The notes: a model not told the origin generated them from the letters alone. A stretch of DNA of 28,551 nt from Phycisphaerales bacterium (GCA_028288875.1 JAQGHK010000536.1:1-28551); one strand, 5' to 3'. Shown: positions 10,572 to 28,551, numbered from the stretch's first letter. Made by a program: numbers and translations.

Positions 10572-10604
10572 ATCATATCTCGCCGTTGAGGATGGGGTTA
10601 GAAT
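10572..10604. promoter_or_regulatory. Back-to-back divergent -10 boxes (TATGAT on minus at 10577-10572; TAGAAT on plus at 10599-10604)
   Basis: Each hexamer lies exactly 6 nt from its start codon in a 45-bp intergenic gap. Confidence 0.5.
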
Positions 10605-10610
10605 CGCGTC

Positions 10611-12685: not shown

Positions 12686-12881
12686 GCGGGTTTTCACAGC
12701 CTTTGACTGGAGTGTATGGCTGATGCGACGAACCGCCGGCAGAAATCGGCGACCAAGCTGTTCCGGGCGAAAATAAGACTGGCATCATCGACGAACGTAG
12801 TTTAGATTATTCGGCGGAAAGCGGCCGTTCGTAGGGAACGAGCAGCCGACTTTCAGCATTTCTGAACGGACAAAATCAATC

Positions 12882-13046
12882 ATGCGTGGTGTTTTCGGTC
12901 TGATTGTCGGCATTGTCTTCATCGCGGGCGGTCTCAGCGGGCAAATGGTGCTCATCGGCACCCATAGCGGCCCCGCCTTGGCGGCAGTTGGCGCGGTGCT
13001 CTGCGTTATCAACGTCCTGCGCATTATGCAGGCCCGCGCGAGCTAA
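12882..13046 (+). CDS. Small (54-aa) two-helix membrane protein, absent from the ORF track
   Basis: Hand translation: MRGVFGLIVGIVFIAGGLSGQMVLIGTHSGPALAAVGAVLCVINVLRIMQARAS*. Two hydrophobic helices, GC-ending codons, and it fills an otherwise empty gap. Confidence 0.75.
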   Translation: MRGVFGLIVGIVFIAGGLSGQMVLIGTHSGPALAAVGAVLCVINVLRIMQARAS

Positions 13047-13205
13047 CCGGCAGGCGAAGGCCTGTCCTTGCAGCGCGGGTCACGGCATATGCCTGCTTTT
13101 TGGAAGCCGATGGAACTGCGGCTTTCGCGGCCGCGTCGGCTCTTTGCCTGCGACATCGGACCACCCCGTTGCGTCCACGGCCGAACCGGCGAGAATTGCC
13201 GGCCC

Positions 13206-14489
13206 ATGGATTTTTTCAATTACCGCGACGGCCAGTTGTTCTGTGAAGGCGTTCCTGCCGAGAAAATCGCCAAGGGAGTCGGCACTCCCGCCTACGTATA
13301 TTCGAAGGCGACCCTCCTGCACCACTACCGCCAGGTGGCCGACAGCTTTAAGGCCATCAACCCCACGATCTGCTTCAGCATCAAAAGCAGCGGCAACATC
13401 CACCTTTGCCGGGTTCTTGCTGAAGCCGGCTGCGGCTTTGACGTAACCAGCGGCGGCGAACTGTTCCGCGCCTTAGAGGCCGGCGGCGATCCGAAGAAGA
13501 TCATCTACGCCGGCGTCGGCAAGACCGACGACGAAATCCGCATGGCTATTGATGCCGGCATCGCGGCGTTCAATATCGAATCCGAAGCCGAGATCGAAAA
13601 CATCGACAAGGTCGCCGGCGAGATGGGGAAGAAGGCCATCGGCGCCGTCCGCATCAATCCCGATGTCGACCCGAAGACGCACAAGAAGACCAGCACCGGC
13701 ACGAAGGAAACGAAGTTCGGCGTCGACATCGAACGGGCCGAGCGCGTGTTCGAGCAATATAGGAACCTCACCAACCTGCGCATTGCCGGCGTGCACGTGC
13801 ATATCGGCAGCCCGGTATATGAGATTCAGCCGTACATCGATGCGGTGAACAAGATGACGGCGCTCATCGACAAGCTGAAGGCCAAGGGCCATCCGATCGA
13901 GTGGCTGGACCTCGGCGGTGGTTTCGCGGTCGACTACAAGAAGCCCGGCCAGGCGTTGCCGGTGACGGAGCACGCGAAGGCCCTCGTGCCGCTGCTGCAG
14001 GGGAAGGATTACCACATCGCCCTGGAGCCCGGCCGCTACATGGTCGGCAATGCCGGCATCCTGCTGACCAAGGTGCTGTATCGCAAGCAGGGCGGGGAAA
14101 AGAAGTTCGTCATCGTCGACGCCGGCATGAACGACCTGATCCGGCCGACGCTTTACGAGAGCTACCACTTCGTCTGGCCCGCCACGCCGAGCGAAGGCAA
14201 TGTGATCACGGCCCGCGACGAGAGCTTCGTGCCGAAGAACGGTGAAACCGTCGACGTCGTGGGCCCGATCTGCGAAAGCGGCGATTACCTGGCGAAAGAT
14301 CGGCCCCTGCCGATCACCAAGCGCGGCGACCTGCTCGCCGTCTTCACCGCTGGCGCGTACGGCTTCGCGATGGCCAGCAACTACAACAACCGACCGCGCG
14401 CGCCGGAGGTGCTGGTGGACGGCGACAGCTATAAGGTCATCCGGCGTCGTGAGACGTATGAAGATTTGGTCGCGGCAGAAAGGGTATAG
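13206..14489 (+). CDS. lysA: Diaminopimelate decarboxylase
   Basis: TPAYVYS, FSIK (PLP Lys), FDVTSGGEL, HIGS, LDLGGG, EPGRY, VVGPICESGD, GAYGFAMASNYN; start at ATG 13206 (MDFFNY). Confidence 0.96.
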   Translation: MDFFNYRDGQLFCEGVPAEKIAKGVGTPAYVYSKATLLHHYRQVADSFKAINPTICFSIKSSGNIHLCRVLAEAGCGFDVTSGGELFRALEAGGDPKKIIYAGVGKTDDEIRMAIDAGIAAFNIESEAEIENIDKVAGEMGKKAIGAVRINPDVDPKTHKKTSTGTKETKFGVDIERAERVFEQYRNLTNLRIAGVHVHIGSPVYEIQPYIDAVNKMTALIDKLKAKGHPIEWLDLGGGFAVDYKKPGQALPVTEHAKALVPLLQGKDYHIALEPGRYMVGNAGILLTKVLYRKQGGEKKFVIVDAGMNDLIRPTLYESYHFVWPATPSEGNVITARDESFVPKNGETVDVVGPICESGDYLAKDRPLPITKRGDLLAVFTAGAYGFAMASNYNNRPRAPEVLVDGDSYKVIRRRETYEDLVAAERV

Positions 14490-14500
14490 GCAATCAAAAC

Positions 14501-15409
14501 ATGAGCGACAAAAGCTTGATGCCAGTAGACCGTGTCGGCGAATTGATGCACGCAGCGCTTAGCGAGCTTGTCGCGCAAGGTGGCGAAGCACGGGGCTCCG
14601 ATGTAATTGGCGCCGTCGGCAAACGGTTCGTGTTTTCTGCCGTAGAACTCGAAGCTTATTCCAACGGTACACCCCGATGGGAAACGAATCTCCGTTTCTA
14701 CACCACGAACTGCGTCAAAGCCGGCTGGCTTCGCAAAAGCAAAGGCACCTGGCAGATTACGACCGAGGGTCGGCAGGTACTTTCTCTTTCGCCGGGTGAG
14801 CTGGTTCGCGAATCAACTCGCAAATATAACGAATGGAATCGAACGCGTTCCAAGTCTTCAATTTCCGAAGAAACGCAGTCGCTGACGATTGAGACTGCGC
14901 CCGAACTTGTTGTCCGGGAAAACACATTCGAGCAGGCAGAAGAGCAATCGCGGCGAGTCATCGAAGACCATTTGTTCACGCTCAGCCCTTATGAGTTCCA
15001 AGATCTTGTAGGCCACCTACTGCGGGCTATGGGATATTTTATAGCCCACACTGCCCCACCGGGCCCAGACGGTGGCGTCGACCTGATCGTCTACAAAGAC
15101 CCACTCGGCACCGTCGCTCCGCGTATCAAAGTGCAGGTCAAGCATCGCCGCGAGAGCAAAGTGTCCTCTCGCGAAATCCGTGAACTGCAAGGCCTTATCC
15201 AACACGAGGAGGTTGGTCTGATGGTCTCTAGTGGTGGCTTTGCGAAAGATGCCGCTAACGAAGCCCGCCGCGCATCCAAGCACATCGATCAAATCGATCT
15301 TGAACGCCTGATCACTCTCTGGCAGGAGCATTATCCCAAGCTATCGGAAGAAGGCCGGCGAATGTTGCCACTTGCGGCGATCTACCATTTAGCACCGACC
15401 GAAGACTGA
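14501..15409 (+). CDS. mrr: Mrr-family type IV restriction endonuclease (Mrr_N winged helix plus Mrr_cat)
   Basis: N-terminal RWETNLRF...KAGWL...GTWQITTEG; C-terminal YEFQDLVGHLLRAMGY, DGGVD...VQVK, SSGGF..A..EA. Confidence 0.88.
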   Translation: MSDKSLMPVDRVGELMHAALSELVAQGGEARGSDVIGAVGKRFVFSAVELEAYSNGTPRWETNLRFYTTNCVKAGWLRKSKGTWQITTEGRQVLSLSPGELVRESTRKYNEWNRTRSKSSISEETQSLTIETAPELVVRENTFEQAEEQSRRVIEDHLFTLSPYEFQDLVGHLLRAMGYFIAHTAPPGPDGGVDLIVYKDPLGTVAPRIKVQVKHRRESKVSSREIRELQGLIQHEEVGLMVSSGGFAKDAANEARRASKHIDQIDLERLITLWQEHYPKLSEEGRRMLPLAAIYHLAPTED

Positions 15410-15440
15410 CATGTCCTCTGTATTTCGATGAAACTGACCT

Positions 15441-16130
15441 GTGCTGAAAGTATTTCACAAAGCCCGCTGGATCTTCTTCGACGTCGGCTACACGCTGTTC
15501 GACGAAACGCCGGCGTGGCAGGGTCTGTTCCAAACCGTGTCGGCTGAGTTAAAACGGCGCGGGCGCGACGTGCCGGCCGAGGCGATCTGGCGGACGTACG
15601 ACGACATCTGCGCGACCTTCGCCCCCTTCCAGTGGCGAGGCCTGTGCGAGCGGTTGGCGGCCAGTCCCGCCGAGGCGATCGAGCTGGAGAAGCTCTCCGG
15701 CAGCGGCTGGTCGCACGACGGCGAAGTTGTTTACCCCGGCGCGATCGATACCGTTCGCAGCCTGCACGGGCGGTACCGGCTCGGGGTGATCGCCAATCAG
15801 CATGAAGGCACCGTGCGTCGCTTGGCCGAGCGGAACCTGGGCGAGTATTTCGACCTTGTCATCGGCTCGGCTGAGGCGGGCGTGCGCAAGCCTGATCCGG
15901 CGATCTTCCAGATGGCCCTCGCGAAGGCCGGCTGCCGGGCGGATGAGGCCGTCATGGTCGGCGACCGCATCGACAACGACATCCGCCCCGCCAATGTCAT
16001 TGGCATGCAGACGATCCACGTCCGCCAAGGCGGCAGCGGCCGACAGTGGCCACGCTCGGCGGAAGAGACGGCGACGGTGACGGTCGATACGATTGGCGAG
16101 GTCGCCAACCTGTTCGGGAGCCGAAGATGA
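15441..16130 (+). CDS. HAD-superfamily hydrolase (subfamily IA)
   Basis: FFDVGYTLFD (motif I), IANQ, KPDPAIF, MVGDRIDNDI. Confidence 0.92.
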   Translation: MLKVFHKARWIFFDVGYTLFDETPAWQGLFQTVSAELKRRGRDVPAEAIWRTYDDICATFAPFQWRGLCERLAASPAEAIELEKLSGSGWSHDGEVVYPGAIDTVRSLHGRYRLGVIANQHEGTVRRLAERNLGEYFDLVIGSAEAGVRKPDPAIFQMALAKAGCRADEAVMVGDRIDNDIRPANVIGMQTIHVRQGGSGRQWPRSAEETATVTVDTIGEVANLFGSRR

Positions 16131-16621
16131 CCGACTATCCACCGCCGATTTTAGACGCCCCGCTTCCTAATGTCGCGCCAAACAGCCTGGCGTACGCGAC
16201 GCTCGCACCGTACTCGGCCGATACGGAACACTTGCGGCTGCTGTCGATCTTTCATTTCATCGTCGGGCCGGTCCAGCTCCTCTTCGGGCTTTTCCCGGTC
16301 ATCCATCTGGTGATGGGTATTCTGATGCTCAACGGCAAGTTCGGCACGCCCGGCGGCCCGAATCAGCCCGACATGAGTTTTATGGGGTGGATGTTTATCG
16401 CCATGGCGTCGGTGTTCATTCTAATCGGCATGGGTTTTGGCATCCTGACGCTAATCAGCGGTTTCCAGATCCAAGCCCGCCGCCGCCGCACCTTCAGCGT
16501 CGTTGTCGCGGCGGTGAATTGCATTCACTTCCCTTTTGGCACGACATTGGGCGTCTTTACGCTTATTGTGCTGCTACGCCGCTCCGTGGAGGAACTGTAT
16601 CGGTCGACCGCCAGGACGTAA
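16127..16621 (+). CDS. Hypothetical membrane protein (about 4 TM helices)
   Basis: ATG overlaps the HAD stop (ATGA); HLRLLSIFHFIVG..., NCIHFPFGTTLGVFTLIVL; multiple hydrophobic segments. Confidence 0.8.
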   Translation: MTDYPPPILDAPLPNVAPNSLAYATLAPYSADTEHLRLLSIFHFIVGPVQLLFGLFPVIHLVMGILMLNGKFGTPGGPNQPDMSFMGWMFIAMASVFILIGMGFGILTLISGFQIQARRRRTFSVVVAAVNCIHFPFGTTLGVFTLIVLLRRSVEELYRSTART

Positions 16622-16627
16622 TGCCTC

Positions 16628-17473
16628 ATGGCTCTTCACGAATACCGCAGCCGCGATGGCGTGATGGTTTACACGCGCCGCGGCATGGGCGATCCGCTGC
16701 TGCTGGTGCACGGTGTCTACCCCGGCGCCAGCCATCACGAATTTGATCACAACGTTTCGGCGCTCTGCAGCCGGTTCACGGTGTATGCCGTCGATCTGAT
16801 CGGCTTCGGTCAGAGCGATTCGCCGCGCCGGGCGCACTCGGCGCAGATGCACCAGCACCTGCTGCGCGACTTCATCAAAGACGTCATCACCGCGCCGGCG
16901 GTCGTCGTGGGTTCAGGCCTGAGCACCGGCCTGGCCGCGCGGCTGGGGGTGTATGACGACGGTTGGCTCAGCCACCTGGTGCTGCTCGCCCCGCCGAACA
17001 AGCAGGTCTACCACGAGCCACCAGGCTTGGCGGACAACCTCAGCCGCTTCCTGCTCGGCACGCTGGCGATCGGCACGTCGTACTACACGGTCGCCGCCAG
17101 CCGCGGCGGGTTGCGGGAGTTCCTCAAGGAAAGCTACCACGACCCCAAAGCCATCACGCGCGAGATCGTTGAGCAGCTGTTCACCGAGGCCAATGAGCCG
17201 AACAAGATGATGCCGTTCATCAGTGCCCTCTGCGGCTATTTCGATACCGACCTGGCCAACTGGCTGCCGTACGTGCGGCGCCCGACGCAGATCATCGTCG
17301 GCCAAGACCAACTCCCCGTGCCTGAGGATCGCTGGCTGAAATACGCTCAGTGGTCGATGGGGAAACGCCTGGACGTCATCGACGATTCCCGCGACTTCCC
17401 GCACCAGGAGCAGAGTGCGAGGACGAACGAGACGATGTTGACCTTCCTGGGTGCTGACGCAGTGAAGCCTTAG
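16628..17473 (+). CDS. Alpha/beta hydrolase fold protein
   Basis: LLLVHG, VYAVDLIGFGQSD, PTQIIVG, PHQE; atypical nucleophile elbow GSGLS. Confidence 0.88.
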   Translation: MALHEYRSRDGVMVYTRRGMGDPLLLVHGVYPGASHHEFDHNVSALCSRFTVYAVDLIGFGQSDSPRRAHSAQMHQHLLRDFIKDVITAPAVVVGSGLSTGLAARLGVYDDGWLSHLVLLAPPNKQVYHEPPGLADNLSRFLLGTLAIGTSYYTVAASRGGLREFLKESYHDPKAITREIVEQLFTEANEPNKMMPFISALCGYFDTDLANWLPYVRRPTQIIVGQDQLPVPEDRWLKYAQWSMGKRLDVIDDSRDFPHQEQSARTNETMLTFLGADAVKP

Positions 17474-18084
17474 GCCGCGCCGGCGAGCCGGCGCAATTGC
17501 ACCCGCTGCAGGTGGCTCGCCATTTTTTCCAGTGTGCGGCGGCTGGGCGTGTTCTTGCCGGGGATATACAGGCCGAATCGCAGCTTGCCGCTGGGCAGGG
17601 CTTTGACGCCTTGTACTTTCATCTTCTCGACGACGCTGAAGGCTTCCATTTGCAGGTTCACGTCCACCGTCGAGCCGACGACCAGGGGCTTGGGGCTGAT
17701 GACGCCGACGCCTTCGGGGCTGACGTCGGCCAGGATGCAGCCGGCCACGCGATCGACGCCCACCGGCAGGTTCAGCATCACGGCCGTCGTGCGGAAGCTG
17801 CCGCGCTGCTCGGCCGATACGGGTTCGCCGACCAAGGCGAAGGCGATCGTCGTGATGCCGTTCTCAAACGTCTCGCCGGCGACGGTGGCCCCCTGCTGGA
17901 AGAACTTGCCCCGCGTCTCGGCGAACAGCGTCACCTCCGTGCCGACGGCCAGCCCGGCGACCTGTTCAAAATCAAGCTGGCAGCTCGTCACGCCTTCAAT
18001 CGCGCGGACCTTGCCTTCGCTCAGCACGCGCTTGTTGTTCTCATTCGGAATGGCCAGAAACGCTGCGGTGTTGAGCTTAAGCAT
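17470..18084 (-). CDS. PilZ domain protein (YcgR-like two-domain layout, putative c-di-GMP effector)
   Basis: QRGSFR (RxxxR) and DVSPEG (D/NxSxxG) c-di-GMP-binding motifs after an N-terminal beta domain; SD GAGGGA. Confidence 0.85.
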   Translation of the reverse strand: MLKLNTAAFLAIPNENNKRVLSEGKVRAIEGVTSCQLDFEQVAGLAVGTEVTLFAETRGKFFQQGATVAGETFENGITTIAFALVGEPVSAEQRGSFRTTAVMLNLPVGVDRVAGCILADVSPEGVGVISPKPLVVGSTVDVNLQMEAFSVVEKMKVQGVKALPSGKLRFGLYIPGKNTPSRRTLEKMASHLQRVQLRRLAGAA

Positions 18085-18118
18085 GATGGGTTCCCTCGTT
18101 ACGTCGATCTCTCAATTC

Positions 18119-18147
18119 GTATCGGCCGCCGAGGCGAGGATCGTTGA
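18119..18147 (-). promoter_or_regulatory. Possible sigma28 (FliA)-type promoter for the PilZ gene
   Basis: Minus strand reads TCAA-N17-GCCGATAC. The -10 matches GCCGATAA at 7/8, but the spacer is 2 nt longer than the usual 15. Confidence 0.25.
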
Positions 18148-18716
18148 ATGATTCACGACCCATAAGAGGATTCCATCAGCCGGCTTGTCGATGTAGAGGC
18201 GATTGGCCTAAGTGTTCTTTTGAGCGCGAATCTTGCTCCGTCAAATTACATTCGCGCAGCGCAGGTTAAGTGCTGGCCAAGTATAAGTTTGCAACGAAAA
18301 AACGAGCGCCGCGAGCGCGCCTAACTTGCCTAGACCGCCATGTGACTTATGGCCGGCGATGCATGAGCATGTAATGGGTTGATGGCCGGCGGTCGTTCGC
18401 GACTTCGCCGCCACACGCGGCAGGGATGGGCCGACCGATTCTGCAGATTCTTCGGTGCTCCGAATTACATCAACCGCATGGTCGTGGCTCATCGCTTCTC
18501 CAATCAAAATCGCCCGCACAGCCTTGGTGGTGCGTCGGCTTCTGGAACTACCGAAATTTTATCGCCGGCCTGCCGAAAAGTCGGCCAAAAAACAGGCGTT
18601 TTGGCGAAATTCCGGCCGCCGTCCAAACGCTGCGGCCGCCCCTGCCAAACTCGGGATCGGATTCCCACGCAACCCGCGGCTTGGTCGCGCGTCCAACGTC
18701 ATGGAGAATTCGAGCC

Positions 18717-20261
18717 ATGCGGATCGCAGAAATTAAAAGTCGTAGCCGGGCGTTTGCCGCTGCCGTCGTTCTAGGGGCAGCGCTCGCCCGCGGGCAGGCC
18801 CTGCCCGCGCCAGAGCCGCGGTTTGCCTTGACCGTCTATTCCAACGCCGACCCGGCGACGTTTGACCCCAAGGGCGACCCGCAGCAGAACACCTATCCGC
18901 CGCAGCGCGCCTTGCCCGGCTACGGCGTGGTGCGCGAGCGGCGGGAGATCGATCTGAAAAGCGGCATCAACACGCTCCGCTTCAGCGATGTGGCCGCCGG
19001 CATCGATCCGACGACCGTCAGCTTCGAAAGCCTCACCGACCCGGCCGGCACGGCGGTGCTGGAGCAGAACTACGAGTTCGATCTGGTCAGCTCGGCCAAG
19101 CTGCTGGAAAAGTACATCGACAAGGCGGTCGTGGTTGAACGGCCGATGGGCGACGGGAAGATCGAAACGATCGAAGGCACCCTGCTGTCGGCCGCGCAGG
19201 GATTGGTCATCAAAACCCCAGATGGCGGCGTGCGGATCATCAACGGCTACAGCGGCATTCGCGTGGCCGACGCCGCGGGGCTGATCACCAAGCCCACCCT
19301 CGTCTGGCAACTGACGGCCACCAAGGAAGGCAAGCACGACGCGCTGGTGACTTATCAAACCAGCGGCCTGACCTGGCGGGCGGATTACAACATCGTCCTG
19401 AACGAAAAGAACACGGCCGCCGACGTGGGCGCGTGGGTGACGATGGTGAACCGCAGCGGCGTGAATTACCCGGACACGCGCCTGAAACTGGTGGCCGGCG
19501 ACGTGCAGCGCGTGACGCCGCCCCAGCGCGCGGAGGTTCAGTTCGCCGCCCGTGCCATGAGGGATGCGGCAGAGGCCGGCGCCGGCGGCTTCGTCGAAAA
19601 GTCCCTGTTTGAATACCACCTGTACACGCTCGGCCGAACCACGTCGCTTCCAGACAATTCCACAAAGCAGATCGAGCTGTTTGAGAAAAAGCTCGACGTG
19701 CCGGCGAAGAAAGTGTTCGTCTATTACGGCCTGCCCGAACAGTGGCGTGGATTTTACTCCCCTCAGCCGTACCAGAACCGCGACCTCGGCATCGAAACGA
19801 ACAAGAAAGTCGACGTCTATATCTCGATCGACAACAAGGAAGCCGCCGGACTGGGCATCCCGCTGCCGGCCGGGCGGGTGCGCGTCTATCAGCGGGACGA
19901 CACTGAAAAGACGGCCGAATTCGTCGGCGAAGACGTCATTCAGCACACGCCCAAGGACGAGAAGCTGCTGATCCGTGTCGGCAGCGCGTTTGATATTGTC
20001 GGCGAGCGGAAGCAGACGGATTTCACGGTGAACGTCGACGGCCACGTCATTACCGAGTCGTTCGAGATCAAGCTGCGGAACCATAAGAAAGAGGCCGTTT
20101 CCGTGATCGTGAAGGAGAACTTGTTCCGCTGGGCGAACTGGGAGATCACGGCCAAGAGCGACGCCTTTGAGAAGCAGGACTACCGCACGGTGCATTTCCC
20201 CGTCGACGTGCCTGCAGACGGCGAAAAGGTCGTCACGTACACCGTGAAATACACGTGGTAG
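18717..20261 (+). CDS. DUF4139 domain-containing exported protein
   Basis: Signal-like N-terminus, LTVYSN, VLEQNYEFDLVS..KLLEKY, YQTSGLTWRADY, LFEYHLYTL, LGIPLPAGRVRVY, GSAFDI; start ATG 18717 with GGAG upstream. Confidence 0.85.
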   Translation: MRIAEIKSRSRAFAAAVVLGAALARGQALPAPEPRFALTVYSNADPATFDPKGDPQQNTYPPQRALPGYGVVRERREIDLKSGINTLRFSDVAAGIDPTTVSFESLTDPAGTAVLEQNYEFDLVSSAKLLEKYIDKAVVVERPMGDGKIETIEGTLLSAAQGLVIKTPDGGVRIINGYSGIRVADAAGLITKPTLVWQLTATKEGKHDALVTYQTSGLTWRADYNIVLNEKNTAADVGAWVTMVNRSGVNYPDTRLKLVAGDVQRVTPPQRAEVQFAARAMRDAAEAGAGGFVEKSLFEYHLYTLGRTTSLPDNSTKQIELFEKKLDVPAKKVFVYYGLPEQWRGFYSPQPYQNRDLGIETNKKVDVYISIDNKEAAGLGIPLPAGRVRVYQRDDTEKTAEFVGEDVIQHTPKDEKLLIRVGSAFDIVGERKQTDFTVNVDGHVITESFEIKLRNHKKEAVSVIVKENLFRWANWEITAKSDAFEKQDYRTVHFPVDVPADGEKVVTYTVKYTW

Positions 20262-20452
20262 GCCGCCGAGAAGCGCAAGGCGGCAAAGTAGACCCGCTTT
20301 ATTGCATCGGCAGCGGCACTCCACCGGGAAAAGCAAATAACCGTTGACCGCGGTGCTGTGGAAAATTAGCCTCTGCGGTTTGTTCGCATGGTGATCGGAC
20401 TTTTGGCTATTGCCGAGGCCGGCGCTTTACGGTTCTTCAGGGGCGGGGGTTC

Positions 20453-22435
20453 ATGAGAGGTCTTCGTCAAACGCACACGCGTGCGGTACTTCTGTTGGCC
20501 GGTGCGTTTGTCGTGTTAGCCATCGCGCGGCCGGTGGCGGCGGATACGACCGTCACCGCTGCAAACCTTCCGCTGAAATCCAGCGGCTCGGCCAGTGGGT
20601 CGAGCTGGAACCTCTCCACCAACGGCTATCTCGGCACGTATGTTCGCCTGGACAAGAGCGGCACGCTGAAGCTCACGATGAACGCGCTGGGCACCAGCTC
20701 CAAGGGCGTTGCCCCGGACCTGACGCTGGCGATCGCGGATTACAAGAAGTCCTTTGCCGTCACGAGCACGACCGGCGGCTACTACACATACACGTCGCCG
20801 ATCCTGCCGGCCGGGACGTACTTCGTTCGCACGCAGTTGGACAACAGCCGGACGGTTCGCCTGAACAACGCGCCGGTGACGCTTACACCGAAGCTGACGC
20901 TCAAGAGCCTGACGGTGGGCGCGAACGCGAAGGTGCTCAGCAGCAATACCGACGACAACGTCCGCGCGGCGGCCAATACGTATATCGATAACTTCCGCCA
21001 AGGCACGGCGACGCTGAAAATTCCCGGCCTGACCGCCGGCCAGGCCGTGCACGTGCGGCTGACGAACAATGCCTTCAAACTCGGCACCTATGTGCCCGGG
21101 ACCAGCCTGAACGACGTGAACGATTACCTGGGCAGCAACGCGCCGGCCGGCTCGCACGCAGCCAATTTTCAGTCGTTCATCAATGGGCGATTCAACTCGC
21201 TGGTCGCTTCCAATGCCGCAAAATGGGGATCGAACGAACCGAGCCAGGGCAATGTCGACATGGCCGGCTCGGACGCGATGATGGCCTATGCCCGCTCGCA
21301 CGGCATGCAGGCGCGCATGCACAACCTGCTCTGGGGCGACCAGCAGCCGGCGTTTGTGAACGACCTGGTCAGCCGGGCGCAGAACGGCGACGCGGGTGCG
21401 AAGACATCGCTCGTGAACGCGATCTCCCAGCGCATCACGTACACCGTCAGCTACAACAATTACATCAACGGCGCGACGCGCGGTAACACGTTCACGCAGA
21501 TGGACGTGCTGAACGAATCGCTGCACAACAGCAAGTATTGGAGGGTGCTGGGCGCATCCGGCGTGGCCGACATCTACAAGAAGACGGCCACGGCGCTGGC
21601 CGGCATTGGATCGAACGCGAAGCTGTATCTGAACGAGTACAACGTGCTGCAGTACTCGCCGAGCACGTATAGCACGAGCACCGGTACGCTCAGCGGCAGC
21701 GACTCGTACGCGAACTGGTACCGCCAACACATCACCGATGTGAACAACGCGGGCTTCGCCGCCGGCGGGACGAAGAACGTCGTGGGCGGGATCGGCATGC
21801 AGTATTACTCGACCACGTCGGGCAATATCCCCAGCGTCGGCACGATGCAGAAAGCGCTGCAGAACTTCTCCATTGAAGGCCTGCCCATGTCCCTGACGGA
21901 ATTCGGCGTGCAGGATACCGTCCGCGACGGCACGGCCCCGCAGATCATGGATGACGCCATCCGAATGATGATGGGCACGGCCGGCGTTGACACGTTCATG
22001 TACTGGGGCTGGGACCCGGGCGCGACCGATCGCCTCGGCAGCGGCTCCACGCTGGTGAATTCCAATTGGCGAAGGGCCGACGGCAGCTGGGATCTGACGG
22101 CTGTCGGGAAACGATTCGAATACCTGTACGGCCGTGGCCTGGATCCGACCGCGCCGGGGGCGAACGCCGATGGATCGAATCCGAAGCCGTGGTCGACGGA
22201 TCTCACGCGCACCGTGAACGCCGACGGCACGATTAATTTCAAAGGCTTCTACGGCGACTACGCGGTTGATGTCGGCGGGAAGACGTACAACTTTACGTTC
22301 AACAAAGGAACGAACAGCTACACGCTCCAGTCGAGCGCAGGCCGGCTGTTTGCGTCGGACATGCCAGAGCCGGTGGGGCTGGCGATTTTCGGTATGGCCG
22401 GCATGCTCGGCCTCCGGCGATCACGGAAGTGTTAG
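20453..22435 (+). CDS. GH10 family glycoside hydrolase (endo-1,4-beta-xylanase-like) with PEP-CTERM anchor
   Basis: Signal peptide; NAAKW, RMHNLLWG, DVLNE (acid/base), LNEYN, GIGMQ, LTEFG (nucleophile); C-terminal MPEPVGLAIFGMAGMLGLRRSRK. Confidence 0.88.
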   Translation: MRGLRQTHTRAVLLLAGAFVVLAIARPVAADTTVTAANLPLKSSGSASGSSWNLSTNGYLGTYVRLDKSGTLKLTMNALGTSSKGVAPDLTLAIADYKKSFAVTSTTGGYYTYTSPILPAGTYFVRTQLDNSRTVRLNNAPVTLTPKLTLKSLTVGANAKVLSSNTDDNVRAAANTYIDNFRQGTATLKIPGLTAGQAVHVRLTNNAFKLGTYVPGTSLNDVNDYLGSNAPAGSHAANFQSFINGRFNSLVASNAAKWGSNEPSQGNVDMAGSDAMMAYARSHGMQARMHNLLWGDQQPAFVNDLVSRAQNGDAGAKTSLVNAISQRITYTVSYNNYINGATRGNTFTQMDVLNESLHNSKYWRVLGASGVADIYKKTATALAGIGSNAKLYLNEYNVLQYSPSTYSTSTGTLSGSDSYANWYRQHITDVNNAGFAAGGTKNVVGGIGMQYYSTTSGNIPSVGTMQKALQNFSIEGLPMSLTEFGVQDTVRDGTAPQIMDDAIRMMMGTAGVDTFMYWGWDPGATDRLGSGSTLVNSNWRRADGSWDLTAVGKRFEYLYGRGLDPTAPGANADGSNPKPWSTDLTRTVNADGTINFKGFYGDYAVDVGGKTYNFTFNKGTNSYTLQSSAGRLFASDMPEPVGLAIFGMAGMLGLRRSRKC

Positions 22436-23610
22436 GCGGCCACGCGCCGCGTCCGCCGCAGGAGCACCGCAAAGCCGACCAACGAAAGCATCGCCGGCTC
22501 GGGAATTAAAATCGATCCGGCGAGATACGGGACGAGGAATTCGGCCTTCGGTGTGCCGAGGCCGGTGACCAAGTCATACCCCGTTGTTGCCGGAATCGGA
22601 TTGCTGCCGGTCGTGATGTCATTGAACGCCAGGGCGTAGTACGGCGTGTTGTAGAGCGCGTAGAGCATGGTCAGCGTCTGATCACCGGTCAATGATTCCA
22701 GCCCATTGGCGGCACGACCTTCGTTGGCTAACGCAATCAGGCCAGCCCACTGCGGCGCGCCGGCGCTCGTGCCGCCAATCTGAATGAAATTGGCGTCGCC
22801 GGTGCCGGTGCTGCCGTTGAGCTGGTTGTAGATGAGGAAACCTGTTTGCGGATCGGCGTCGTAGGCGACATCAGGCACGGTCCGATCGGGACCGTCATGG
22901 ACAGCGTCTTGGTACGCAGGTCGAGTGAAACTTGGACTGACACCACCGCCGGACTTGCTCCACGCCGTTTCGCCCGTGGCGGTGATGGTGGTGCCGCCGA
23001 CGGCCAGGACATGCGGCGAAGTCGCCGGGTAGTTCGCCTGTATGCCGCGATCGCCCGAGGCGGCCACGAAGCTCACTCCGGCGTGATTCGTTGGCTGCGT
23101 GAAGGCTTCATCGAAAAAGCTGTAGCCGCCGTAATCCTGACCGGCGAAGCTCATGCTGATGGCCGACACGCCCGGGACGGATTTGGCGTAACGAACGGCG
23201 GTGAACAGATTCGCATACGTTGGCGATTCGGCGGCGACGACCAGAATATTCGCCTGCGGCGCGATCGCATGGGCGTACTGGATATCGAGCGCGCTTTCGT
23301 ACTCCCAATCGTGAGAGCCGGTGGGTTCCTGAGACGGCAGCGTGCTGCCGCCCGTCTGGTTGACGATCGTCAGCGATGGCGCCGGCGTGAGGCCGAAGTG
23401 CGCGTCGAAGTACGCAAGGTCGGACGCAGTGCTGGGATCGGTGTAAGCGACGATCACGGCGATCGTCTGCCCGGCGCCGGTATTGGAAAGTTGATCGAAG
23501 CCATAAAACGAGCGGATGCTCGACGGCGTTTGGGCGGCGCCGAACGACGACGCAACAGCAATCGCCGACGCGAGACCGGCCGAAGCAATGCAACACGCCG
23601 ATCGCCGCAT
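22432..23610 (-). CDS. S53 (sedolisin/kumamolisin-like) serine peptidase with PEP-CTERM anchor
   Basis: ESALDIQ (Glu/Asp), ASGD (oxyanion Asp), GGTSAGAP (Ser), Ca-site DITTG...GYDLVTGLGTP; C-terminal IPEPAMLSLVGFAVLLRRTRR; SD AGGA. Confidence 0.9.
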   Translation of the reverse strand: MRRSACCIASAGLASAIAVASSFGAAQTPSSIRSFYGFDQLSNTGAGQTIAVIVAYTDPSTASDLAYFDAHFGLTPAPSLTIVNQTGGSTLPSQEPTGSHDWEYESALDIQYAHAIAPQANILVVAAESPTYANLFTAVRYAKSVPGVSAISMSFAGQDYGGYSFFDEAFTQPTNHAGVSFVAASGDRGIQANYPATSPHVLAVGGTTITATGETAWSKSGGGVSPSFTRPAYQDAVHDGPDRTVPDVAYDADPQTGFLIYNQLNGSTGTGDANFIQIGGTSAGAPQWAGLIALANEGRAANGLESLTGDQTLTMLYALYNTPYYALAFNDITTGSNPIPATTGYDLVTGLGTPKAEFLVPYLAGSILIPEPAMLSLVGFAVLLRRTRRVAA

Positions 23611-23790: not shown

Positions 23791-25728
23791 TTAGAACGGA
23801 ACGGCTTGGTCCATCCAGTCGTCGCTGCGGAGCACCTGCTTGCGGTTGAAGCGGGCGAGGCGTTCGGCGCGGGCCTGGGCGAGGTTGATTAGGCGCTGGC
23901 CGCCGATCGCGCGCCACATTTTGCGGAAGCGCGGGGCATGGCGGATGAACAGTTCGTCCTCGGCGCTGGCAAAGGTCTGGGCACAGCCGGGATCGCCCTG
24001 ACGAGCGGCGCGGCCGTAGAGCTGGCGATCGATGCGGCCGCTGGGCTGGGGCTCGGTGTTGATCACGTGCAGGCCGCCGAGTTCGACGACGCCGCGACCG
24101 AGGTGAATGTCGGTCCCGCGGCCGGCCATGTTGGTGGCGACGGTGATTTTGCCGATCTGCCCGGCTTCGGCGATGACGTTGGCTTCCTGTGCGTTCTGCG
24201 CCGCGTTCAACACGCGGTGCGGCCGGCCGAGCGCGGTGAGGCGCTTGGACAGGTCTTCGCTGGCATACACGCTGCGCGTGCCGACGAGGACGGGAATACC
24301 CTTGTCGTTGAGCTCAATAATGCGCTCCATGATCGCTTCGTATTTATCCGCGGCCTTATCGAAAAAGCGCAACGGCAACTGAGTGCGAATGCACGGCTTG
24401 TTCGTCGGGATCTTCACGATCGGGCGCGTGTAGATCTGCCAGAATTCGGGCGCGCTTTCCCAGGCCGTGCCGGTCATGCCGCCCATTTCGGGGTATTGGC
24501 GGAAGAAACGCTGGAAGCTGATGCGCGCCAGGTTTTCCTTGTCGGCGGTGACCTTCACGTCTTCTTTGATTTCGATCGCCTGATGCAGGCCGTGCCGCCA
24601 GCTGCGGTCGGCCATCACGCGGCCGGTGAATTCGTCGATGATCTGAACCTTGCCGTCCGGGTCGATCAGATAATGCTCGTCGCGATGGAAGCAGTGCTTG
24701 GCCGTGAGAGCCTGCTGCACGAGTTCTTCGCGCCGGCGACTGCCTTTCCAGAAACCACTGGTATCGCTGGCGCAGATCTCATCGAGGTGGTCGCGGCCTT
24801 GCTCGGTGAACTCCACCTGGCGCACTTCAGTGTCGATCGTGAAATCGACATTCTTGATCATCAGGTCGGCCAGCGTAGTGGCGGCGCGGTAACGCTCGGC
24901 GTTGGGTTCGTCATCCGGCGAGTTGCTGATGATCAGCGGCGTGACGGCTTCATCAATCAGCAGGCTGTCGGCCTCATCAACAATCACCTTCGCCAGGCCG
25001 GGCACCAGCACACTGCTGCGCATGGCCGAACCGCCGAGCAGCGTGACGGCCGTCGCGCTGCTGCTGCGAAGCGTGCCGAGCATGATCTGGTCGCGCAGGA
25101 AGTCGGCCACCAGTTCTTTGCTGGTGACGTAAACGACGTTGCGACGGTAGATGTCGATGCGGTCGACGGCATCGGTATCGTGAATCACATAACCGGCCTT
25201 GTGGCCCATCATGCGATAAAGCGGCGTCATCAGTTCGGCGTCGCGCTGCACCAGGTAATCATTCACCGTGATGATGTGCACCGGCTTGCCGGAGAGCGCC
25301 ATGATGCTGGCACCGACGGCGGCGGTGAGGGTTTTGCCCTCGCCGGTGGCCATCTCGGCGACGGCGGCTTCGTGCATCGCCATCGCGCCCATCAATTGGA
25401 CGAGATAGGGCCGCTTGCCGATCGTGCGGACGGCGGCCTCGCGGGCGAGCGCGAACGCGTACAACAACTTCTCGTCTTGCAGCCGGCCCAGCCGCGCGAG
25501 CACGCGCACTTCTTCCACTTCCTCTTTGAACTTCGCGTCGGCCAGCTTCTGAACGTCCGGCTCCATCGCCTCGATCAGCTCGGCCTGGCGCTTGAGGCGC
25601 GGCAATACGCGGCGGCGATTCTTCACCCAGCCCGTCGCGGCGTGCGCGGGGATATCCAGGCCCTTGAGCTCAGGCGCTTTCACCCGGCGGGCATCGAAGA
25701 CGTTGTACAGTTCGGCGGCAGCGGTCAT
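23791..25728 (-). CDS. Truncated SecA paralogue (NBD1, preprotein-binding domain and NBD2 only); probably not the housekeeping SecA
   Basis: MATGEGKT, TVNDYLVQRD, DEADSLLIDEA, IIDEFTGR, GLHQAIEIKE, GMTGTA, VATNMAGRGTDI, RIDRQLYGRAARQGDPG. Only 645 aa; it ends at the start of the scaffold helix (RKQVLRSDD). Confidence 0.92.
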   Translation of the reverse strand: MTAAAELYNVFDARRVKAPELKGLDIPAHAATGWVKNRRRVLPRLKRQAELIEAMEPDVQKLADAKFKEEVEEVRVLARLGRLQDEKLLYAFALAREAAVRTIGKRPYLVQLMGAMAMHEAAVAEMATGEGKTLTAAVGASIMALSGKPVHIITVNDYLVQRDAELMTPLYRMMGHKAGYVIHDTDAVDRIDIYRRNVVYVTSKELVADFLRDQIMLGTLRSSSATAVTLLGGSAMRSSVLVPGLAKVIVDEADSLLIDEAVTPLIISNSPDDEPNAERYRAATTLADLMIKNVDFTIDTEVRQVEFTEQGRDHLDEICASDTSGFWKGSRRREELVQQALTAKHCFHRDEHYLIDPDGKVQIIDEFTGRVMADRSWRHGLHQAIEIKEDVKVTADKENLARISFQRFFRQYPEMGGMTGTAWESAPEFWQIYTRPIVKIPTNKPCIRTQLPLRFFDKAADKYEAIMERIIELNDKGIPVLVGTRSVYASEDLSKRLTALGRPHRVLNAAQNAQEANVIAEAGQIGKITVATNMAGRGTDIHLGRGVVELGGLHVINTEPQPSGRIDRQLYGRAARQGDPGCAQTFASAEDELFIRHAPRFRKMWRAIGGQRLINLAQARAERLARFNRKQVLRSDDWMDQAVPF

Positions 25729-25729
25729 G

Positions 25730-25834
25730 GTCAGTAGGCAGACGGCAGAAAGCAGTAGGCAGAATGCACATCAACTTATACGGCAATAGCCCGTTTAACG
25801 ATGTCTTCCTGCCGTCTGTCTTCTGCCGACCGCC
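25730..25834. repeat. Inverted arrays of degenerate heptamers (consensus about GGCAGAA) flanking an AT-richer core
   Basis: Left: gtcagta ggcagac ggcagaa agcagta ggcagaa (25730-25764). Right, as reverse complement: ggcggtc ggcagaa gacagac ggcagga (25834-25807). Confidence 0.8.
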
Positions 25835-25842
25835 CTCTCCTC

Positions 25843-28050
25843 TTAGCTTTGCGAGCTTTGCATCGTCAGCTGTTGGAACCAGCGGTACGCCTGCATGGCC
25901 AGCGGCTCGGGGTTGTTGCTCTTGAAGCGGACGTAGGCGCGCTGGCCGGGATAGAACAGCTCTTCGCCCGTTTTTTCGTCGCGAATCGGATTGTTGAAGA
26001 TCATGCGCGCTTCGTAATTCTGTGCTGCGGTGGTGGTGCCTTTGGGGTCGCTGGCGTCCGGAGCCTCGGTGCCGCCGCCGGCGTGCGTGAGGGCGGCCGA
26101 GCGAACTTCACGCTTGGCGGCCGGGCCGATGCGGATCTTGGTCGTCACTGGGACCACATGGTTGATATCGCCGGCCACGCGCAGCTCGGCGTGGTAGTTG
26201 CCGATGCCGACGTTATTCAGCCGGTCACGATCGGCCTGATCGATCAGGACGAACGCCTCCAGATCCTTCACCTGCGTCACCTCGGCTACTTCTTGCGCCT
26301 TGGGCAGGAACGAGCCTTTCAGGTTATCGATCTGCGGCGCGACTACGCGGCCGTTGATGGGCGAGCGGATTTCCAGCTTGCTGACTTTGTCTTTCTGCTC
26401 GTTGAGGATTTTAGTTAGCCGGGTTTGGCGTTCCAGATCAATCCCATACTTCGCGGCGTCGCCGACACGGCTGCTCTGCAGTTCCATGCCGACAACTTGA
26501 AGGTCGATCGCGCTGGTCAGCAGTTTGTTCGATTCGTCGTCGTTACGAAGCACGATGAGCAGCTGGCCTTGCTTCACGACTTCGCCGTCTTTGACGAGCA
26601 CCTTGTCGACAAAGCCGGGCGTTTCCACGCGCAGGGTCTGTCGGGCTGCGGCTTCAAGCACGCCTTCGGCGCGAACGGTAACGGGGAATTTCACGATACC
26701 GACGAGCGCGATCAGGATCGCGGCGACTGCAACGCTGAAGGCGACCGCCCGGCCGCGCTTGCGGTGCAGTTCGGGCTCGGTGGCCAGATACTTGGCGAAT
26801 TTGAACAGCGGGAAGATGGCGAAGGTGCCGAACGCCGTCGCGCCCATGATCAGGCCGACAACCTTGATTTCCTGTGGCAGCGTGAAGAACAGCATGTACG
26901 CGATCGCCAGGCTGACGAACACGCGGTAGCCGCTGCTGGCAATGGCGTAGACGAATAGTTCGATGCGCTGCTTCAGCGGCGGCAGCGGCTGCTGCTGCTT
27001 CACGCGGAAGATGTGCCGCTTGACCAGGCCCAGCGCGTATTCGCTGGCCTTGCGCTGCAGGTTCGGGATTTCCCAGAAGTCGGACAGGATGTAATAGCCG
27101 TCGTAACGCAGCAGCGGGTTGGCGTTGAAGACGATCGTGCTGACCGAGGCGATCAGCATCGTGTTGTAAGCGAGTTGATTGACCAGATTCGCGCCGCTGC
27201 CGTAGGTGGCTTTCCAGATAAAGGCGCAAATGGCGGCGACGAACAATTCAAAAATCATGCCGCCCGCACCTACGAACACGCGCTTCCACTTATTCGGGAA
27301 CGCCCAGGCCGTGCTCGCATCGACATAAGGCGTCGGCACGAGCACCAGCAGCATGATGCCCACTTCATGCACCTCGCCGCCGAAGCGACGACAGCTGAAC
27401 GCGTGGCCCATTTCGTGAATGAACTTGATGACGACGAACGTCACCCACAGCCAGGCCCAGTTACCCGGATCGATGGCGTTCTTCGCGGCGCCCTGCAGTT
27501 CGGTCCACATCGGAGCGATGCTGATGACCGCGGCGATGATCACGCCCAGCCACACGATCGCCCCAAGCCAGCTGAGCAGCAGGCGGATCGGCGGCATCCA
27601 GGTTTTGATGAACATGTCCGGATCCCACACGGGAATCCGCGGGAACAGGATGTTCATCAGCTTCTGCTGCATCTGCCGCTGGTTGTGCATCTTCTGCCGC
27701 TTGAGAACGACGGCCGAGTCGGGGGTGACGTCGGTCTCGATCAAGTTGGCGGCAAAGAGCTGTGACAGGATTTGAATGACTTCAGGTTGCGTGGGCGCGT
27801 CATCGGCGAGCTGGCCGCCGACGAGGTCCCAGGCTTCGCCAATGGTGCGGCTGCCATCGAGCAGGCCGACGAAGCGGTACGCCGGATCAGAAAGGCGATG
27901 GAACTGATTGCCGGCCGGATCGCGGACGACATACCAGCGCTCGCCGCGGAAATACTGACGGCTGATCTGCGCCGTCGGCCGAAGCCGCGGGCGCAGTTGG
28001 ACGACGCGGTACCAGGACTCCGAAAATGTGGGACGAAGGGCGAGGGTCAT
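25843..28050 (-). CDS. Fusion protein: PqqD/RRE-like N-terminal domain, M50 (site-2) metallopeptidase, HlyD-type periplasmic adaptor
   Basis: HEMGH (residues 212-216) and NANPLLRYDG M50 motifs with several TM helices. N-terminal winged-helix-like segment YVVRDP...LLDGSRTIGEAW...ILSQLFAANLI. C-terminal ETPGFVDKVLVKDGEVVKQGQLL, a coiled hairpin, and IRSPINGRVV. Confidence 0.88.
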   Translation of the reverse strand: MTLALRPTFSESWYRVVQLRPRLRPTAQISRQYFRGERWYVVRDPAGNQFHRLSDPAYRFVGLLDGSRTIGEAWDLVGGQLADDAPTQPEVIQILSQLFAANLIETDVTPDSAVVLKRQKMHNQRQMQQKLMNILFPRIPVWDPDMFIKTWMPPIRLLLSWLGAIVWLGVIIAAVISIAPMWTELQGAAKNAIDPGNWAWLWVTFVVIKFIHEMGHAFSCRRFGGEVHEVGIMLLVLVPTPYVDASTAWAFPNKWKRVFVGAGGMIFELFVAAICAFIWKATYGSGANLVNQLAYNTMLIASVSTIVFNANPLLRYDGYYILSDFWEIPNLQRKASEYALGLVKRHIFRVKQQQPLPPLKQRIELFVYAIASSGYRVFVSLAIAYMLFFTLPQEIKVVGLIMGATAFGTFAIFPLFKFAKYLATEPELHRKRGRAVAFSVAVAAILIALVGIVKFPVTVRAEGVLEAAARQTLRVETPGFVDKVLVKDGEVVKQGQLLIVLRNDDESNKLLTSAIDLQVVGMELQSSRVGDAAKYGIDLERQTRLTKILNEQKDKVSKLEIRSPINGRVVAPQIDNLKGSFLPKAQEVAEVTQVKDLEAFVLIDQADRDRLNNVGIGNYHAELRVAGDINHVVPVTTKIRIGPAAKREVRSAALTHAGGGTEAPDASDPKGTTTAAQNYEARMIFNNPIRDEKTGEELFYPGQRAYVRFKSNNPEPLAMQAYRWFQQLTMQSSQS

Positions 28051-28069
28051 ATTGGGCTCGAGTCACTGA

Positions 28070-28161
28070 CGTCTGTGGTTGCGGGTATAAACCCTCGCAA
28101 ACACGGTTCGTATTGTGGCGATGTCAGTTTCTGGGCGGGTTTACACTCGCGATCACAGACG
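28070..28161. repeat. Degenerate REP-like doublet of the same family as 5013-5093
   Basis: The left arm cgtctgtggttgcgggtataaaccc and the reverse complement of the right arm cgtctgtgatcgcgagtgtaaaccc match at 21/25; core GCGGGTGTAAACCC. Confidence 0.75.
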
Positions 28162-28168
28162 CACTTCT

Positions 28169-28551
28169 TTAAATCCACAGTTTCAGGCGCGTCCACTCCC
28201 AGAGCCGGTGCAGGCCGTGCCAGTAGAGCGGCTTCTTTTCGACATCGATCCGGGCTTCGCCGAGCTGGCCAGGCTGCCACTTGGCATCGAAGCCATCGAT
28301 GCGGGCGTACACGCGGAACGTGTTGGCCGCTTCCTTGGTTTCGCCCAGCGGCACGATGCGGGTGATTTCAACCGCGTGGCGTTCGTTCGGGCTGCTCTTG
28401 GTGGCCAGGGTGCCGGTGCTGCCGACTTTCAGAAGCTGAATGTCACGTTCGTTGACGGTCAGCTCGCTCTGCAGGTCACCTTTGTGGCCGATGGGGGCGA
28501 TTTCCATGAGGGCGTCGCCCTCTTTGACTTGGCTGTTGATCTTTTCTTTCA
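28169..28551 (-). CDS. HlyD/efflux periplasmic adaptor protein, C-terminal part (5' end outside the window)
   Basis: The frame is open to the window edge: ...KEKINSQVKEGDALMEIAP...ELTVNERDIQLLKVGSTG...WQPGQLGEARIDVEKKPLYWHGLHRLWEWTRLKLWI*. This is a lipoyl-like half plus a beta-barrel tail typical of adaptor proteins. ATG 28507 in the track is internal. Confidence 0.85.
   Translation of the reverse strand, partial: KEKINSQVKEGDALMEIAPIGHKGDLQSELTVNERDIQLLKVGSTGTLATKSSPNERHAVEITRIVPLGETKEAANTFRVYARIDGFDAKWQPGQLGEARIDVEKKPLYWHGLHRLWEWTRLKLWI

Follow-up and report, generated by a model that had tools for sequence, protein, structure and literature searches.

The right-hand end (positions 23,791–28,551) of a 28,551-nucleotide stretch of DNA from a Phycisphaerales bacterium (GCA_028288875.1, JAQGHK010000536.1:1-28551; hereafter called the window) holds most of a four-gene cassette that encodes a short paralogue of SecA, a fusion protein joining an RRE-like domain to an M50 membrane protease and a HlyD-type periplasmic adaptor, and two further HlyD-type adaptors, one of them with a GAF domain. 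With a probability that we place only slightly above even (about 0.55), this cassette constitutes a machine for the export and maturation of proteins with a LEPR-XLL-type leader, which would resemble type I secretion and be coupled to TolC, but would operate without an ATP-binding cassette (ABC) transporter. This reading is based on the domain make-up of the encoded proteins, the conservation of their motifs, the linkage of the genes, the absence of an ABC partner, and the co-occurrence of the cassette with tagged proteins, whose genes adjoin it in several genomes.

A first inspection of this DNA, made from the sequence alone (hereafter the sequence-only reading), had called the machine undescribed. 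This claim has to be withdrawn, as the module and also the idea of an ATPase acting together with an M50 pore had already been presented in an in silico study of genomes by Kamneva, Poudel, and Ward (Kamneva et al., 2015; PLoS One 10:e0129066, PMC4452313). The module described there consists of a secondary SecA_DEAD protein without wing and scaffold, a Peptidase_M50 protein that carries HlyD domains, a GAF-HlyD protein, and HlyD/biotin-lipoyl proteins; it occurs in Planctomycetes, sometimes includes a gene for an outer-membrane efflux protein (OEP) and never one for an ABC transporter. The authors proposed the SecA_DEAD protein as the ATPase and the M50 protein as a possible pore, and gave META1p2399-2402 of Methylobacterium extorquens AM1, an organism in which the GAF gene is expressed separately, as an example locus (Kamneva et al., 2015). 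No experimental characterization of the module was found in the literature, also when the M. extorquens locus tags were used as search terms; besides the 2015 paper, one 2017 study (PLoS Comput Biol, PMC5313232) shares its key phrase. In gene content, the cassette studied here is identical to the 2015 module and thus represents a further, ordinary member of this widespread module, from a Tepidisphaeraceae-like soil bacterium: a wing-less SecA_DEAD protein is present in addition to canonical SecA, the M50-HlyD gene is adjacent to it (114 bp upstream), an ABC transporter gene is absent, and GAF-HlyD and HlyD proteins complete the set, with the last 126 amino acids (aa) of the GAF-HlyD protein encoded in the window and the rest taken from the related loci L086, L010, and L017. 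The RRE domain was not noted and no cargo was named in the 2015 paper; the RRE fold and the link to the LEPR-XLL tag are added here.

Gene content and domain architecture

The window comprises the entire contig C112 of a metagenome-assembled genome (MAG) from soil, which is 79% complete, is split into 713 contigs, and has MAGs of the Tepidisphaeraceae/Tepidisphaerales as its nearest relatives. Consequently, this assembly contains no sequence further to the right. Three open reading frames (ORFs) of the cassette were read in the window, all on the minus strand: the short SecA paralogue P0001 (23791-25728; 645 aa), the RRE/M50/HlyD fusion P0002 (25843-28050; 735 aa), and P0003 (28169-28549, with the feature extending to 28551; 126 aa), which is open at the contig end and constitutes the C-terminal part of a GAF-HlyD protein. 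Translation and Pfam searches confirm the three co-oriented genes with the domains and intact motifs reported by the sequence-only reading, and they add detail to the partial periplasmic adaptor that it had recognized. P0003 (HlyD_3, 6.6e-9) corresponds to the C-terminus of the 651-aa protein P0245, which is encoded on a 59-kb contig from ENA (L086) that also bears a 96%-identical copy of P0002. The operon of L086 is complete and consists of genes for a HlyD adaptor with a Sec signal peptide (285 aa), GAF-HlyD (651 aa), the RRE/M50/HlyD fusion (735 aa), and the short SecA (645 aa), so that the window covers the downstream three quarters of this four-gene operon. In relatives, the GAF-HlyD protein has about 650 aa and is composed of a cytoplasmic N-terminal region with the GAF domain, which was detected in the L017 and L010 orthologues of P0003, one transmembrane helix, and the adaptor. 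The additional adaptors upstream, GAF-fused and plain, for which the sequence-only reading had advised to look, are thus present in L086, L010, and L017. While the flanks of L086 agree with the window downstream (S8 peptidase, GH10, and DUF4139 genes) and show a divergent 2-oxoacid:ferredoxin oxidoreductase gene upstream, the more distant loci L010 and L017 retain the four genes within different flanks, which identifies the four-gene cassette as the unit. As already seen by the sequence-only reading in the visible part, the window is devoid of ABC and resistance-nodulation-division (RND) transporter genes, and also of TolC genes, according to Pfam searches of the neighboring genes and, for ABC transporters, a scan for Walker A plus LSGGQ motifs.

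P0002 contains the Pfam domains Peptidase_M50, HlyD_3, and Biotin_lipoyl_2, and its AF2 model (pLDDT 85.7) is divided into three parts, each of which has its own structural match in VIA-align. The first part (aa 21–106; 27733-27990, minus strand) is an RRE-like domain predicted to bind leader peptides. It matches the leader-bound proteins TbiB1 (5v1u; Z 9.7) and lasso-peptide B1 (6jx3; Z 9.4), and these fold matches span 81–84 of 84–85 residues (81/84 for 5v1u). These matches agree with the three-strand, three-helix winged-helix fold of the RRE; the match to the Pfam model PqqD is weak and under its cut-off (E 0.009). According to the model and the topology inferred from it, the domain precedes the first membrane helix, and the leader should therefore be met in the cytoplasm. 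The second part is the M50 membrane core (aa 196–393; 26872-27465, minus strand; PF02163, 29.8 bits against a cut-off of 27.2), a site-2 protease (S2P) type domain that matches RseP of Aquifex (9j83) with Z 9.2 over 167 residues. It carries the motifs HEMGH (HExxH; aa 212–216; 27403-27417, minus strand) and NANPLLRYDG (NxxPxxxxDG; aa 309–318; 27097-27126, minus strand), and the residues H212, E213, H216, N309, N311, P312, D317, and G318 are invariant in an alignment of 45 homologues. The third part (aa 456–712; 25915-26685, minus strand) is a periplasmic adaptor of the MexA/MacA type, which was identified by VIA-align (Z 16.5 to MexA, 15.8 to MacA-MexA, 15.2 to AcrA, and 11.5 to HlyD) and Foldseek (E 5e-13); its modeled alpha-hairpin is short and of the TolC-docking kind (helices 504–530 and 532–557). 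The NCBIfam models for the daptide_HExxH (NF041824; aa 21–415, 4.7e-43) and YydH/LiaK (NF058609; 8e-11) peptidases also match P0002, with 147.8 and 42 bits against cut-offs of 300 and 225, respectively, and the family is named "putative peptide zinc metalloprotease" by JGI.

The motor protein P0001 matches the Pfam models SecA_DEAD (2.7e-90), SecA_PP_bind (1.4e-27), and P-loop_SecA (8e-48); no Pfam match to SecA_SW or SEC-C was obtained. It aligns with residues 16–562 of Bacillus subtilis SecA in chain 3jv2_A (13–559 in other entries), is about 40% identical to solved SecA proteins across the motor, and continues for approximately 40 residues beyond the end of the B. subtilis alignment. It retains both nucleotide-binding domains (NBD1 and NBD2), the preprotein cross-linking domain (PPXD), and the start of the scaffold helix (about 40 aa), but neither the helical wing nor the two-helix finger nor the SEC-C tail. 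Besides Walker A (ATGEGKT with K132; aa 127–133; 25330-25350, minus strand) and the DEAD box (aa 251–254; 24967-24978, minus strand), the translation contains the motor motifs TGTA, TNMAGRGTD, and GRAARQGDPG, and in an alignment of 28 homologues the SecA motor motifs are invariant or nearly so. More than 120 clusters of short SecA homologues have lengths of 643–664 aa. Characteristic of the family are a conserved N-terminal extension (ELxxxFDARRVKAPELKGLD; P0001 aa 1–38, 25615-25728) and a conserved C-terminus (...RKQVLxxDDWMDQxLPF-COOH; aa 600–645, 23794-23931) with a nearly invariant F645; in addition, its NBD1 has an insertion (aa ~220–243) of about 18 residues that B. subtilis SecA lacks. 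To judge from the sequences, the conserved termini and this insertion look like candidate docking elements. P0001 remains under the equivalog cut-offs of canonical SecA (560.9 versus 814 bits for NF009538 and 544 versus 800 bits for TIGR00963) and under those of all SecA2 models (TIGR03714, TIGR04221, TIGR04397, and NF012136). A separate, full-length SecA, which the sequence-only reading had expected elsewhere in the genome, is encoded on contig C370 (1352 aa) and possesses both SecA_SW and SEC-C. A Woeseiaceae protein (L015), considered as a short SecA from another phylum, was rejected, because its 956-aa frame identifies it as canonical SecA.

Linkage across genomes and tagged proteins

The cassette was followed through an evenly sampled set of 401 Planctomycetota genomes, 104 of which encode an M50-HlyD fusion. 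In 23 of the 26 loci with sufficient room (among the 29 best loci), the short SecA gene is located directly downstream of the fusion gene on the same strand, and ORF clustering of 27 loci yielded four conserved families, which are the four cassette genes. Short SecA frames were counted among the best 150 of 392 SecA-like matches and the tally is thus a lower bound: they occur in at least about 52 genomes, all of which are M50-positive except G098 (83% complete), the sole genome with a short SecA among the 297 M50-negative ones within these 150 matches. Where the two genes are unlinked, their copies match in number (two of each in G344 and G008, one of each in G270 and G330). The co-occurrence of short SecA and M50-adaptor fusions, without which the sequence-only reading would have regarded its proposal as refuted, is therefore borne out, and so is the lack of an ABC energizer in the operon, since none of 28 loci contains an ORF with both Walker A and the ABC signature LSGGQ. 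Neighbors of the SecY2/Asp or mycobacterial SecA2 type are absent from the conserved neighbors and from L086. A gene for a TolC-type OEP adjoins the cassette in 5 of 27 loci; the genome analyzed here encodes approximately 10 OEPs, none of them in this locus.

The proposed link to cargo proteins rests on an N-terminal tag. The NCBIfam model for LEPR-XLL (NF012209; 24 positions) yields matches above its cut-off for 52 of the 401 genomes, and 49 of these 52 are M50-positive (odds ratio 87, Fisher p 6e-30, a value that overstates the association because related genomes are not independent). A second profile, built from 20 tags of the genome studied here, matches 51 of the 401 genomes, 43 of which are M50-positive. 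Several tagged genes are neighbors of the cassette, three of them by direct reading of the sequence. In G135, a tagged frame of 5105 aa starts 147 bp after the short SecA gene, and its tag reads ...FEQLEPRVMLDA. A frame of 8711 aa with the tag ...LEELEPRILLSA is divergent from the cassette in G351. A large ORF beside the cassette of G008, cut off by the end of the locus after at least 1435 aa, starts with MNKRKKLLLEPLEQRIMLDA and was missed by the profile, which shows that the association between tag and cassette is underestimated. By their coordinates, tagged ORFs also adjoin the cassette in G274, G302, G398, G397, G101, G190, G370, G292, and G157.

In the genome from which the window derives, the relaxed motif LE[PSQRAT]R.[LMV][LMF] was searched in frames of at least 250 aa and occurs 52 times, in 47 cases no further than 160 aa from the start of the frame. 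The consensus of the tag is ΦExLExRxLΦ[A/S], with a basic stretch before it and no Sec-type hydrophobic core after it. About 45 long ORFs with an N-terminal ΦExLExRxLΦ tag are distributed over approximately 44 contigs (for example G000:C477:936-5555, C647:330-4640, C504:2375-4825, and C235:4244-7747), and only one of them exceeds the cut-off of NF012209. The tagged proteins include enzymes such as a PL11 rhamnogalacturonan lyase, an M36 peptidase, reprolysin-like peptidases, and an S8 protease with P-domain, besides CBM96/fn3, dockerin/SdrD, RTX-repeat/beta-propeller, and some Ig-repeat proteins. Going by these domains, the tag in this organism appears to mark a broad set of extracellular-type enzymes and not giant adhesins alone. 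The sizes of the tagged proteins are lower bounds, since in this fragmented MAG 13 of 44 tagged frames run up to the end of a contig. Two expectations of the sequence-only reading hold in part. TolC genes and giant leader-bearing proteins do occur beside the cassette, yet in other genomes: near this locus none were found, and searches covering 10 kb in L086, L010, and L017 were equally negative for TolC and giant repeat proteins, as they were for ABC genes in L086 and this lineage. As to the substrates, which it had called "probably large", the candidates here are about 45 proteins that are scattered over the genome and range from ordinary to large, and not a giant next to the cassette. Many tags contain a pair of arginines, and they were therefore also considered as signals for twin-arginine translocation (Tat); this appears unlikely from the charged or polar residues that closely follow the motif and from the single arginine of many other tags. 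A gene for a tagged S8 protease with P-domain (G000:C370:7486-10587, minus strand) shares contig C370 with canonical secA and is separated from it by about 1 kb, a neighborhood that is probably coincidental.

Possible functions of the cassette

The fusion of an RRE domain with a protease and an adaptor, the two further adaptors, a motor that has lost its SecY-engaging parts, the lack of an ABC transporter, and the recurrence of TolC and tagged genes next to the cassette together point to a type-I-like machine that exports proteins without an ABC transporter and cleaves their leaders. In such a machine, the leader of the cargo would be bound in the cytoplasm by the RRE domain of the fusion protein. 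The short SecA, which has kept both nucleotide-binding domains and the preprotein clamp and has lost the parts that engage SecY, could clamp the unfolded chain and feed it to the membrane part at the expense of ATP. The M50 site-2-type protease would cut off the leader, and the three kinds of adaptors, fused to the protease, bearing a GAF domain, or soluble, might form a bridge to a TolC-type channel encoded elsewhere. The route through the inner membrane, the docking of the motor, the cut site within the leader, and the ligand of the GAF domain are elements of this picture that we infer.

Such a machine would share features with several known systems. With type I secretion systems and peptidase-containing ABC transporters (PCATs; HlyB-HlyD-TolC, LapBCE, and PCAT1/CvaB), it has in common adaptors of the HlyD/MexA class, a cytoplasmic ATPase, a TolC-type channel gene adjacent to the cassette in some loci, RTX repeats on some candidate cargo proteins and, as in PCATs, a proposed removal of the leader that is coupled to export. 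In contrast to these systems, the window, L086, and 26 other loci contain no ABC transporter, the ATPase is derived from SecA, the cassette encodes three different adaptors, the putative signal is N-terminal instead of C-terminal, and the protease is an M50 intramembrane metalloprotease and not the C39 cysteine protease of PCATs. The motor resembles housekeeping SecA and SecA2 in its DEAD-like core with NBD1, PPXD, and NBD2, but it stops about 40 aa into the scaffold helix and lacks SecY2 or Asp partners. The M50 core has the fold of the site-2 protease RseP, and the arrangement of an RRE ahead of an M50 core that bears HExxH and NxxPxxxxDG is also seen in the leader peptidases of daptides (NF041824) and of the YydH/LiaK type (NF058609); unlike these, P0002 continues into a periplasmic adaptor, has a SecA-type motor encoded beside it, remains under the cut-offs of both families, and is devoid of conserved biosynthetic neighbors for ribosomally synthesized and post-translationally modified peptides (RiPPs).

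Several observations weigh against an export machine driven by the short SecA. No M50 protease is known to act as a protein-conducting pore, and the literature yielded no experiment on any member of the module. Co-folding of the complete short SecA (645 aa) with aa 1–350 of the M50 fusion resulted in a score of 0.23, which is under the threshold of 0.32 and counts neither as support nor as counter-evidence. Neither the window nor the 10 kb around the cassette in L086 contains a TolC or cargo gene, 10 of the 73 tag-positive genomes have no detected M50 fusion, and the co-occurrence statistics are inflated by shared ancestry. Furthermore, G043 and G300 keep an M50-HlyD and HlyD pair without a short SecA. 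This result is based on the full listing of matches for G043 and on a single SecA-type match with a canonical-like score for G300, and it implies that the protease-adaptor can work without the motor, at least as a paralogue. Both organisms belong to genus g59, have one M50-HlyD copy each, and also lack tag matches, whereas G239 and G357 of the same genus have two M50-HlyD copies each together with short SecA and tag matches. This pattern suggests two paralogous classes of protease-adaptors, only one of which is tied to motor and tag.

Some of these observations would be accommodated by a different, in our estimation unlikely, division of labor, in which the cargo crosses the inner membrane by other means and the assembly cleaves the tag and passes the periplasmic cargo on to TolC, comparable to MacAB-TolC, with the short SecA acting as a cytoplasmic targeting or holdase factor. 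S2P enzymes are known as proteases and not as channels, RseP is the best match of the membrane domain, the adaptor resembles MacA and MexA, M50-HlyD pairs exist without a short SecA, and the co-fold of SecA and M50 lent no support. A periplasmic hand-over is difficult to reconcile, though, with tags that lack a hydrophobic Sec-type core and with a short SecA that has lost its SecY-engaging parts; none of the 28 loci offers an alternative energizer, and the predicted topology, with the RRE N-terminal to the first membrane helix, lets contact with the leader be expected in the cytoplasm. Less probable still is a role in intramembrane proteolysis or signaling, in which the GAF domain would sense a ligand, the SecA-like ATPase would unfold or extract a membrane-anchored substrate for cleavage by the S2P, and the adaptors would tether the complex to the envelope. 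Membership in the S2P family with an invariant active site, the GAF sensor domain of the partner protein, and the separate expression of the GAF gene in M. extorquens (Kamneva et al., 2015) would fit this role, but three adaptors of the TolC-docking type and the recurrently adjacent TolC genes point to transport, the link to dozens of tagged extracellular-type enzymes is strong, and the conserved neighbors in 27 loci include no sigma or anti-sigma genes.

An exporter and leader peptidase for a small RiPP-like peptide, as a parallel to the RRE-bearing daptide and YydH/LiaK metalloproteases, ranks slightly lower again among these improbable functions. It can invoke the matches of both NCBIfam models, the similarity of the RRE fold to leader-bound lasso-peptide B1 proteins, and the family name given by JGI; yet, the model scores are far under their cut-offs, 27 loci show no conserved gene for a RiPP precursor or a modifying enzyme, and a polypeptide motor of the SecA type as well as the association with the tag suit large proteins better. 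Small ORFs between the GAF-HlyD and M50 genes of L010 and L012 were tested as precursors and rejected, as they are mutually unrelated and look inserted. That the genes are mere neighbors, and the short SecA a decaying or redundant secA copy, could be argued from the truncation itself and from nothing else. The conservation data exclude this for practical purposes: the narrow length range in more than 120 clusters, the (nearly) invariant motor motifs, and the conserved termini are not those of a decaying gene, and across families 23 of 26 loci have the same gene order, with matching copy numbers where the genes are unlinked.

Compared with export by an ABC-less machine as such, a more far-reaching interpretation is tentative and in our view has somewhat less than an even chance of being correct. 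It holds that the cassette represents a distinct, unnumbered secretion pathway of diderm bacteria, in which a SecA-derived motor takes the place of the ABC transporter, a cleavable ΦExLExRxLΦ leader is read by the RRE, and M50 cleavage takes place during one-step export through TolC; in this organism, the pathway would be of general use, exporting about 45 exoenzymes and surface proteins, and not be dedicated to giant adhesins. If this were true, many soil and aquatic diderms (among them Planctomycetota, Verrucomicrobia, and Proteobacteria) would bypass both Sec or Tat combined with type II secretion and classical ABC-driven type I secretion when exporting a large part of their extracellular enzymes and giant surface proteins. 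In evolution, SecA would have taken up a second role, driving a machine linked to TolC, and leader recognition by RREs would extend from small peptides to whole proteins. Export by the cassette is directly testable, because the tag predicts a list of cargo proteins and the active-site and Walker A residues are targets for mutation; cultured carriers include Humisphaera borealis, whose short SecA is 69% identical, and M. extorquens AM1 (Kamneva et al., 2015). Taken alone, the window is of modest value, being one more incomplete, assembly-truncated copy of the module published in 2015.

Intercistronic regions and neighboring genes

Both gaps between the cassette genes are occupied by long imperfect hairpins. 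The 114-nt gap between the M50 fusion and the short SecA gene (25729-25842, minus strand) contains the inverted repeats I5 and I11, and its hairpin (minimum free energy -53.8 kcal/mol, z -6.71 versus shuffled sequences) ends just 5' of the ATG of the secA-like gene. The 118-nt gap between the GAF-HlyD and M50 fusion genes (28051-28168, minus strand) contains the inverted repeat I1 with 35-nt arms (-41.6 kcal/mol, z -4.79 versus shuffles). The sequence-only reading had described gaps of about 115 bp filled with repeats; the sizes agree, but the long imperfect inverted repeats show that the filling consists of hairpins and not of direct repeats. In the 96%-identical relative L086 the M50-SecA hairpin is retained, with changes in both arms, and the more distant relatives L007 and L008 have other sequence in this gap. 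The hairpins may serve in the processing or stability of the mRNA or tune the translation of the downstream cistron. In L010 (7216-7587) and L012 (3192-3623), the GAF-HlyD and M50-HlyD genes are separated by a small inserted gene; the two inserts are unrelated, and one resembles four-helix-bundle proteins of the "intervening sequence" type. Evidently, the operon tolerates insertions at this junction, which in the window is a hairpin site. No RNA run contains the stretch, which is matched by soil DNA runs only.

A DUF3467 protein of 105–151 aa is encoded by a neighbor of the cassette in L047, L060, L062, and L063 (4 of 27 loci) and at an unlinked site in the genome of the window (G000:C402:4065-4331). 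Its AF2 model (pLDDT 81) consists of a three-strand sheet and one helix, for which Foldseek returned a best E of 0.29 and VIA-align a best Z of 5.5, a weak likeness to beta3-alpha folds of the COMM/PC4/Pur-alpha type. A function as a SecB-like chaperone was discarded, as SecB is not among the structural matches.

On the 3' side of the short SecA gene and in the same orientation, the window encodes an S8/S53-like serine peptidase (22432-23610, minus strand) that possesses a Sec signal peptide and, C-terminally, a PEP-CTERM-like anchor (...IPEPAMLSLVGFAVLLRRTRR). The gene is kept at this position only in the nearest relative, L086, and other genes are found there in L010 and L017; it was therefore rejected as a conserved member and probably lies outside the cassette. 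The remaining genes scanned with Pfam (6976-22435) encode metabolic enzymes, an Mrr-type restriction nuclease, a GH10 protein, and a DUF4139 protein. The Mrr-type restriction endonuclease gene (Mrr_N plus Mrr_cat; 14501-15409, plus strand) is situated in the kilobase with the lowest GC content of the window (0.58 versus ~0.63) and may have been acquired horizontally.

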